DNA of 64,000 nucleotides from Patescibacteria group bacterium (lineage in GTDB: Bacteria; Patescibacteriota; Patescibacteriia; UBA9570). This document shows, piece by piece, positions 37,507-38,217 of this stretch. The notes beneath the pieces were generated by a model, which was not told where the DNA came from, made no database searches, and saw only the letters and a program-made list of their open reading frames with translations. The DNA lies in contig JBAZWO010000002.1 in NCBI GenBank assembly GCA_041660305.1, positions 4,739-68,738 on the forward strand, written 5' to 3'. A program made the position numbers and the translations under genes. Positions within the stretch are counted from its first letter, which is position 1. Every line of letters starts with the position of its first letter.

Positions 37507-38217
37507 ATGCCTTTACTTATCAACAAACCCAAGGGTTATACTTCGCATGACATTGTTAATATTGTGCGGAAAAAATTGCACACAAAAAAAGTCGGGCACG
37601 CCGGCACGCTGGATCCGTTAGCGACTGGTTTATTGATTGTATTAGTAGGCAGAGAAGAAACTAAGAAACAGGCGGAATTTATGGCGGGTGATAAAGAATA
37701 TATCGCCGAAATTACTTTAGGCAAAACTAGCGTTACTGATGACGCTGAAGGGCCGTTACAAGCTAGCTCTGATCCCAGTAACATTACTCAAGTCCAAATA
37801 GAGCTTGCTTTAAAAAAATTTATTGGCGCAATTAAACAAACACCACCATTATATTCGGCCATCAAACAACACGGCCAGCCGTTGCATAGGATTATGCGGC
37901 GGCGTGAGAAAAGTAGAGACGCGCTGCAGCGCGTCTCTACTAATGAACACGCAGATAAAATGCATGATGGCACAGATAATACAATTACGGTTCAGCCCAG
38001 AGAGATTAGCATTTTTAATATAGAATTATTAGAAATAACATTACCGGTTGTAAAAATTAAGGTAAATTGTAGTAAAGGTACATATATTAGATCTTTAGCA
38101 CGTGATATTGGCAAAGAATTAGGCGTGGGCGCGTATTTATCTGGTTTAACTCGCACCAAAAGCGGTAATTTTTCCTTGGAGCAAGCGGTGAGTTTGGATG
38201 ATTTTAAAAATAATTAA
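37507..38217 (+). CDS. truB: tRNA pseudouridine(55) synthase
   Basis: GYTSHD..KVGHAGTLDPLATGLL (catalytic Asp), PPLYSAIK and GTYIRSLARDIG. It contains a repeat-derived insertion of about 26 codons. Confidence 0.93.
   Translation: MPLLINKPKGYTSHDIVNIVRKKLHTKKVGHAGTLDPLATGLLIVLVGREETKKQAEFMAGDKEYIAEITLGKTSVTDDAEGPLQASSDPSNITQVQIELALKKFIGAIKQTPPLYSAIKQHGQPLHRIMRRREKSRDALQRVSTNEHADKMHDGTDNTITVQPREISIFNIELLEITLPVVKIKVNCSKGTYIRSLARDIGKELGVGAYLSGLTRTKSGNFSLEQAVSLDDFKNN
37912..37941. repeat. family B palindrome inside truB (identical to 13706-13735)
   Basis: AGTAGAGACGCGCTGCAGCGCGTCTCTACT, codon-aligned, encodes SRDALQRVST. It is followed (about 37942-37989) by sequence resembling a family C arm (..GCATGATGGCACAGATAATACAATTA). 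Confidence 0.88.

Follow-up and report, generated by a model that had tools for sequence, protein, structure and literature searches.

A stretch of 64,000 nucleotides from a Patescibacteria group bacterium (assembly GCA_041660305.1, contig JBAZWO010000002.1, positions 4,739 to 68,738), referred to here in its entirety as the window, carries truB, the gene for tRNA pseudouridine-55 synthase, with an in-frame insert of 78 nt in which two kinds of dispersed repeat abut. One part of the insert is a hairpin of family B, which by its described features is a member of the double-foot GTAG class of repetitive extragenic palindromes (REPs), and the other is a single arm of family C, an AT-rich repeat that resembles a miniature inverted-repeat transposable element (MITE). 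Our analysis suggests that two unrelated, nonautonomous repeats probably landed in succession in the segment of truB that encodes the flexible thumb loop of the enzyme.

The sequence at 37912-37989 is exactly as written in the preliminary description of this DNA, which had proposed that a family B palindrome is joined there to a family C arm while the reading frame of truB is preserved. Each part of this proposal is borne out. The open reading frame (ORF) and its translation run uninterrupted as ...HRIMRRREK-SRDALQRVSTNEHADKMHDGTDNTIT-VQPREISIF, with SRDALQRVSTNEHADK the peptide encoded within the insert. There are exactly two occurrences of the 30-mer AGTAGAGACGCGCTGCAGCGCGTCTCTACT in the window, one at 37912-37941 and the other, identical as had been stated, at 13706-13735, and zero are expected from shuffled sequence. 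The likeness to family C, first noticed by eye, persists in formal local alignment of 37942-37989 with the five C arms of the window (19102+, 19611-, 29112+, 62344+, and 62451-). The best score, 36, was obtained with the 62344 arm, with 26 identities and two 1-nt gaps over 30 columns. This score was reached by one of 5000 dinucleotide shuffles (mean 17.2, standard deviation 3.0) and by none of 10,550 genomic 48-mers (mean 14.4, maximum 29). The similarity beats the AT-rich background, and therefore the assignment of this segment to family C is, on alignment evidence, real.

Comparison with other TruB proteins shows how unusual the segment is. The insert position is empty in 23 homologues in an alignment of 25 TruBs, and alignments to PDB structures break at the insert, leaving query residues 134-161 unaligned. 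Among the 120 best TruB homologues, the stretch from the invariant R131 to R165 has 9-12 residues in 116, 16 in two, 22 in the TruB of locus L001 (P0003), and 33 in the window protein. Because deleting all 26 bracketed codons leaves just 7 residues between R131 and R165, the net gain is about 22-24 codons, and the borders of the insert are uncertain by 2-4 codons. The same segment was not found in repeat-free orthologues: the closest relative, the TruB of locus L002 (P0002, 69% identical), lacks the insert, and no motif of B, C, or a third family, A, occurs in 14 kb of L002. The TruB of L001, 62% identical to that of the window, has a same-site insert that consists of a family C arm alone, GAAACACAGATAACGCTGATAAAATTCATGATTACACAGATAAAATGCAAATT, with the palindrome absent. 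As for the relative timing, the B part in the window is 100% identical to its sister copy and the C part only ~87% identical to the best other C copies, which argues in favor of two events of different age.

The protein that hosts the insert has the features of a TruB. The product of ORF 37507-38217 matches Pfam TruB_N (148 bits) and TruB_C_2, and it has the TruB_N catalytic domain, the catalytic Asp within the GTLDP motif, and the conserved Tyr and Arg, with D36, Y65, Y193, and R195 invariant in the TruB alignment. A database protein with the annotation TruB from "Patescibacteria group bacterium" matches it at 100% identity, and the identical protein is on record for two contigs. Modeling with AlphaFold2 from the alignment gave a mean predicted local distance difference test (pLDDT) score of 91.3, and a Foldseek comparison of the model core with the E. 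coli TruB-RNA complex 1K8W gave a template modeling (TM) score of 0.82. The thumb loop of E. coli TruB comprises residues 124-152 and is highly mobile (PMC3973310). In the PDB alignment query residue 133 corresponds to E. coli residue 143, and the insert falls at E. coli residue ~146; because this split falls within 124-152, the insert lies in the thumb loop, which contacts RNA but is flexible. In the model, the thumb helix (126-144) is predicted to extend through the first 9 inserted residues, and residues 145-164 form a coil of low confidence, with pLDDT below 50 at 149-157 and the core intact. As to the question raised earlier, whether the insert occupies a surface loop away from the catalytic Asp and the PUA domain, the insert is not remote from functional parts, its loop being the RNA-binding thumb, and the window TruB, with its TruB_N and TruB_C_2 domains, has no PUA domain. 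Describing truB as an essential gene was likewise an overstatement, since truB is dispensable in E. coli.

Five copies of family B are present in the 64 kb (Table 1), four of them intragenic and in frame, in glyQS, pheT, gyrB, and truB. All four intragenic copies are stop-free and end in the frame GTC TCT ACN, encoding VST. Each of the five has a GTAG foot followed by a 12-14-bp stem and a CTAC 3' end, and each carries GTAGAGACG...CGTCTCTAC or, in gyrB, the compensated pair GTAGATACG...CGTATCTAC; inner stems and loops vary and stay paired. Relative to the pheT copy, the gyrB copy has a compensatory outer-stem change, G>T with C>A (GAGACG>GATACG, CGTCTC>CGTATC), that leaves the palindrome perfect, and because its loop is the reverse complement of the pheT loop (GCC vs GGC), these two copies are opposite in orientation. 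The truB copy forms a 13-bp perfect stem when folded as RNA, and the fold of its 121-nt context has an energy of -39.5 kcal/mol (z = -4.2). We rejected a larger palindrome in which truB codons would pair with the C arm around B; this extra pairing is probably due to chance, because its left half is conserved coding sequence. An Rfam search of the whole window at the gathering threshold returned tRNA-Asp only, with no RNA family over B or C. In pheT, an 11-nt half-site, GTAGAGACGCC (encoding VETP), lies at 29518-29528, and the full B hairpin, which starts with the same 11 nt, follows 117 nt downstream; ~0.03 chance matches are expected, and the half-site could represent an incomplete or degraded copy of B.

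The distribution of family B is not confined to one lineage. A scan for its outer stem, with one genome per species, gave at least 120 loci with 130 hairpins among the matches listed, ~46 of the loci from Cyanobacteria, ~43 from Bacteroidota, and ~11 from Chloroflexota. More than 10 further lineages are among these matches, including Spirochaetota, Omnitrophota, Desulfuromonadales, Acidobacteriota, Zixibacteria, Ignavibacteria, Rhodothermales, Planctomycetes, and Binatia, and two listed records belong to the candidate phyla radiation (CPR), one from Patescibacteria (L088) and one from Gracilibacteria (L121). The hairpins have a constant 9-bp outer stem and an inner stem that is free in sequence yet paired. 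The inner segment lengthens the stem by at least 3 bp in 105 of the 130 hairpins, through 22 different triplets, against a chance expectation of ~1.6%; structure is conserved, and inner sequence is free. Elsewhere B is mostly extragenic, falling in ORF-like spans in 31 of 130 cases (24%) compared to 270 of 357 random positions, in contrast to four of five copies in the window (Fisher p = 0.016, small n). Such an intragenic excess is plausible because a CPR genome has little intergenic space.

A link between family B and REP-associated tyrosine transposases (RAYTs) is apparent in other genomes. We searched the collected loci by tblastn with the protein of L128, which is encoded by a hairpin-bearing gene and contains the motif ...MPNHIHGII..., and found RAYT-like homologues at 7 of the 120 listed genome loci. 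B sits inside the Y1-transposase gene, just past the HuH motif, in L022, L084, L115, and L097, and in L024, L056, and L107 it lies next to the gene, on either side of it in L024; in L128 and L134, from the metagenome scan, B is likewise inside a RAYT-like gene. The RAYT-like protein matches Pfam Y1_Tnp at 32 bits, reaching the threshold, and in NCBIfam it scores highest against REP-associated tyrosine transposase, with 55-58 bits compared to the 80 set as the equivalog cut-off. As the features of family B match the description of TnpA_REP subclass 2.4, considered below, we place it in this known REP class.

Individual loci add detail to the surroundings of these hairpins. In the RAYT-like genes at L084 878-1612 and L128 986-1612, the B hairpin is in frame past the HuH motif, with in-frame tandem repeats on either side of it in L084 (HDSHDS... 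and SNEQSNEQ...), and L024 1184-1869 has hairpins on both sides of the gene in a REPtron-like layout. Flanking by short tandem repeats is striking in single cases (L048 and L084), but a general association was rejected, with 3 of 130 hairpins compared to 20 of 1190 controls so flanked at a strict threshold. In the Nostocales loci L012, L020, L027, L039, L040, and L119, the B hairpin is centered in a TAGACATCT...AGATGTCTA inverted-repeat mini-element, a REP nested in a MITE. This echoes the small dispersed repeats of Nostoc, hairpins that are reportedly nested in heptamer repeats and mini-transposons. A literature search by the sequences GTAGAGACG and CGTCTCTAC returned primers and cloning sites only.

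Family C is MITE-like in organization. Its unit is ~45-50 nt long, AT-rich, and not self-complementary, with a (T)AGAATCAC terminus followed by degenerate CACAGAT(A/T)A and CTGAT(G/A)A sub-repeats. It takes three forms, a 108-nt head-to-head dimer, an inverted pair around a gene, and solo in-frame arms. The arms of the dimer at 62344-62451 are inverted, 25-44 nt long, and 82-96% matching, with an AT-rich center, and the terminal inverted repeats (TIRs) that bound a short noncoding element in MITEs are thus present. The inverted arms at 19102 and 19611 enclose a PCC-domain gene of 112 aa and 339 nt (19142-19480, minus strand), like a small TIR-bounded cassette. All three intragenic arms, in pheT, in the window truB, and in the L001 truB, are in frame, stop-free, and read in the ACA-GAT (Thr-Asp) frame; one of the other two sense frames has a stop, and the antisense frames give a Cys-rich or hydrophobic peptide or a stop. 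Scanning viral contigs for the C terminus gave two hits, both in ordinary coding sequence.

Table 1. Location of truB, its insert, and the copies of repeat families A, B, and C in the window.
Feature	Position	Strand	Description
truB (tRNA pseudouridine-55 synthase)	37507..38217	+	236 aa, short form; host gene
Composite in-frame insert	37912..37989	+	78 nt; 26 codons as first bracketed
Family B in truB	37912..37941	.	Double-foot GTAG REP hairpin; core 37913-37940 GTAGAGACG-CGCTGCAGCG-CGTCTCTAC; encodes SRDALQRVST
Family B, intergenic	13705..13736	.	32-nt perfect palindrome; between ORFs 12240-13697 and 13758-14255
Family B in glyQS (ORF 8550-9884)	8869..8896	.	In frame, 10 residues; variable GlyRS loop between Cys pairs
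Family B in pheT (ORF 27946-30354)	29635..29663	.	In frame, 10 residues
Family B in gyrB (ORF 30460-32493)	32203..32231	.	In frame, 10 residues; unaligned variable GyrB linker
Family C arm in truB	37942..37987	+	One unit, outer end adjoining B; encodes NEHADKMHDGTDNTI
Family C dimer	62344..62451	.	Two head-to-head arms, 108-nt MITE-like palindrome; between convergent genes
Family C arm	19102..19140	+	Left flank of small PCC-domain gene
Family C arm	19566..19611	-	Right flank of PCC-domain gene, inverted
Family C arm in pheT	29112..29160	+	In frame; encodes ARITDYTDKYTDYTDK, Thr-Asp frame as in truB
Other family A copies	7341-7400, 21505-21541, 32490-32542, 61058-61099		
Related CCCTTTCCCC hairpins	7446-7478, 35631-35660, 61012-61041		

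To account for the composite insert, we propose that one AT-rich, MITE-like arm unit of family C would first have become fixed in the loop, read in its stop-free Thr-Asp frame, and that a REP hairpin of 28-30 nt would more recently have been copied to the outer edge of this arm. By analogy with E. coli TnpA_REP, the sole case in which cleavage and joining of single-stranded DNA are known (from work cited in PMC6006769), family B may be spread by a RAYT-type transposase that handles the hairpins as single strands. The intragenic copies would then be survivors of selection, having a length that is a multiple of three, one of two stop-free frames, a hydrophilic peptide, and a position in a disordered surface loop. 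The thumb loop would thereby carry 22-26 additional residues, translated and tolerated as a passenger, for which no function need be assumed. Translation of the insert is supported by the four of four B and three of three C intragenic copies that keep the frame, since frame keeping would be needless if the insert were excised from the RNA or bypassed by the ribosome.

Several observations weigh against this sequence of events. Neither a B target sequence nor a target-site duplication was found at the five window sites, and tblastn found no RAYT gene within the 64-kb window. Family C shows no consistent target-site duplication at the flanks examined, no transposase for it was found among the window ORFs examined, and inside genes it takes the form of solo arms alone. 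The thumb loop contacts RNA, and the neutrality of the insert is an assumption. The order of C before B is suggested by copy identity and a single relative. A single-gene neighbor-joining (NJ) tree places the insert-free TruB of L002 nearer to the window than the C-bearing TruB of L001, so that C would have been gained twice at one site or cleanly lost once. That C is shared at one position of truB could thus reflect double entry, one clean loss, or homogenization against other copies, each of which is possible.

The adjacency of the two repeats also raises the question of whether the site itself attracts them. A true insertion hotspot, whether at the thumb-loop site or where the resident C arm ends, to which elements would be steered by DNA sequence or structure, for instance through REP machinery working on single-stranded hairpins or through one element that targets another, is in our estimation unlikely, though it is the most serious of the alternatives. 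The C parts of the window and L001 truB genes are identical at 27 of 31 positions, compared to 65% for the remaining gene (44% at third positions), in which no 30-nt window exceeds 25 of 30, and the two gains or one clean loss implied by the NJ tree point the same way. B is placed 0-2 nt from the outer (GAATCAC...) end of the C arm, pheT likewise holds both families, and CACAGAT-type repeats adjoin B at L073, L130, and L135, of which L073 is the sole one from an unbiased sample. Furthermore, truB carries a REP or a Rickettsia palindromic element (RPE) in four other species, and REPs are known targets of insertion sequences (PMC3733652). However, the window contains a single B-C junction, the five B sites have no common flank motif, and tandem repeats beside B are not enriched over the controls noted above. 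Published truB insertions also vary in position, that of S. maltophilia lying at residues 10-16, and a strong selective filter alone predicts that the few tolerant loops will be hit repeatedly. The idea that the two families share an insertion mechanism or site, offered in the preliminary description, may hold, the matching C parts and the CACAGAT repeats beside B speaking for it. A more specific version, in which the thumb-loop stretch is a recurrent landing site that C entered independently in two CPR lineages before a REP targeted the resident C end, seems to us less likely still.

In L073, from the cyanobacterium Iningainema tapete, the repeats (1374-1453) read CACAGAT-GGA-CACAGAT-AAA-CACAGAT and end ~25 nt upstream of the B hairpin.

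It had also been suggested that the two families may belong together as modules of a larger mobile unit, which in truB would mean a single insertion. The two are adjacent there, and RAYT genes of subclass 2.4 embed REP hairpins among short repeats, as in L084 (PMC6006769). This reading is nonetheless very improbable, as B lacks C at four sites of the window (8869, 13707, 29635, and 32203), C lacks B at four loci (19102, 19611, 29112, and 62344-62451), and the L001 truB has C alone at the same site. The apparent ages of B and C, as judged from their copy identities, also differ. Scanning metagenome contigs for B followed by CACAGATAA within 30 nt gave 15 loci, mostly with a single chance 9-mer, and the truB junction sequence was in none of them. 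Since only two of the 15, L130 and L135, are C-like beyond the selected 9-mer, a general association of B with C was rejected.

Alternatively, the insert could have been put to use, with a longer loop that alters tRNA binding or chaperone activity of TruB being selectively kept. The insert is hosted by a mobile element of the protein that contacts RNA, its first residues are modeled as an extension of the thumb helix, and the C-derived peptides are alike in the two lineages (ADKMHDGTDN and ADKIHDYTDK). Against this, GlyRS and PheT, which are unrelated proteins, contain the same repeat-encoded peptides (SRD..VST and TDYTDK, respectively), the closest relative manages without the insert, the model is predicted with low confidence over residues 145-164, and the loop has 9-12 residues in nearly all homologues surveyed, such that we regard co-option as a slim prospect. 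That the insert is cut out of the mRNA, is skipped by the ribosome, or is an assembly artifact at a repeat is scarcely credible: the hairpin is very stable, and its identity with another locus could mislead an assembler, but four B and three C intragenic copies are in frame and stop-free, a pattern on which excision and bypass were rejected, no Rfam family matches, truB sequence continues without a break on either side, and two contigs carry the protein.

The neighborhood of truB holds further repeats and atypical DNA. Directly upstream, at 37386-37503, are two inverted family A units (CCTACCTCACC... plus a CCTCTCC/GGAGAGG hairpin) that form a palindrome of ~118 nt ending 4 nt before the ATG; in L002, only 19 nt separate the same two genes. 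Downstream, 38220-39216 is a GC-rich island (0.555 vs ~0.38 nearby) with an ORF on the minus strand (38292-38753) without a Pfam match, followed by tRNA-Asp (39142-39216). Synteny with L002 ends after truB, where L002 has a PBP-family gene, and the island may be foreign DNA inserted next to the tRNA gene. At 32688-34661 on the minus strand lies a GC-rich gene (0.53-0.59) of composition atypical for the genome, with nine MopE-type putative metal-binding repeats (Pfam PF11617, 275 bits) that explain the direct-repeat families D1-D4. A CPR-like TruB homologue, P0015, has a different insert of ~30 aa, PNDGTTDSNNAPFHLPRLRQGFDGQASSIFH, in a different loop (alignment columns ~196-226) that looks like a translated GC-rich repeat, and the TruB genes of this CPR-like group may have been invaded repeatedly.

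The presence of family B in the window shows that a pan-bacterial, RAYT-type REP hairpin family is also found in Patescibacteria, whose genomes of ~1 Mb have almost no intergenic space, and in the window most B copies end up in frame within core genes (glyQS, pheT, gyrB, and truB). The truB insert offers a clean natural case of two unrelated repeats that appear to have nested stepwise in one protein loop. For annotation and phylogenomics it counsels caution, as lineage-specific "insertions" in conserved CPR proteins may consist of repeat DNA and not represent functional domains. Were the thumb loop a landing site in the sense considered above, a target of the REP machinery could be defined in CPR genomes, and an RNA-binding loop of a tRNA-modifying enzyme would be undergoing repeated remodeling by peptides that repeats encode.

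How do these repeats compare to known systems? TnpA_REP subclass 2.4, equivalent to RAYT group 4, is described as having double-foot REPs with 5' GT[AG]G and 3' C[TC]AC, transposases with the motifs NH[IFV]H, WQ, and YIxNNP, genes with REP hairpins embedded among short repeats, and a distribution given as "Cyanobacteria, Bacteroidetes and various phyla" (Quentin, Siguier, Chandler & Fichant 2018, BMC Genomics 19:475, PMC6006769); Patescibacteria and CPR are not mentioned in PMC6006769. Family B shares the GTAG and CTAC feet, the long hairpin, and the dispersed multicopy state, and the genes associated with it in other genomes share all three motifs and the phylum distribution, with B copies inside the cognate gene, between HuH and Y, or flanking it. 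The window differs in that four of its five B copies are intragenic and no cognate transposase gene lies within the 64 kb. Family C is in turn like bacterial MITEs, such as Nezha in cyanobacteria and Correia/NEMIS, in its inverted arms of ~45-50 nt, its 108-nt arm-arm copy, and its lack of coding capacity, and unlike them in its solo arms inside genes and in having neither a target-site duplication nor a transposase assigned to it.

The insertion of REPs into housekeeping genes, in frame, has precedents that include truB and tRNA synthetase genes (Di Nocera, De Gregorio & Rocco 2013, BMC Genomics 14:522, PMC3733652). The truB hosts are S. maltophilia, E. litoralis, and S. alaskensis, as well as R. 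conorii via RPE-1, and the single units or dimers encode ~7-30 residues that are read as tolerated passengers (PMC3733652). With these GTAG- and CGTC-tagged REPs the window truB has in common a small palindromic, in-frame insertion in a housekeeping gene. The published cases involve one family per site and mostly Proteobacteria, whereas in the window truB two unrelated families abut, in a CPR genome. Among the published TruB inserts, that of E. litoralis, at residues 164-190 of a total of 362, possibly falls close to the thumb loop, and that of S. maltophilia does not. RPEs, as summarized in that survey, are CGTC-tagged, 100-150 bp long, and restricted to Rickettsia (Ogata et al. 2000, via PMC3733652). 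On this summary, the likeness is one of behavior, with selfish palindromes in a small genome inserted in frame at the protein surface and the product still functional. Family B differs from RPEs in being 28-30 bp, GTAG-tagged, pan-phylum, and unrelated in sequence, and family C in being AT-rich with a single unit that is not palindromic. The truB insert is therefore a new example of the known REP/RPE-type invasion of genes and involves no new kind of element and no new mechanism.

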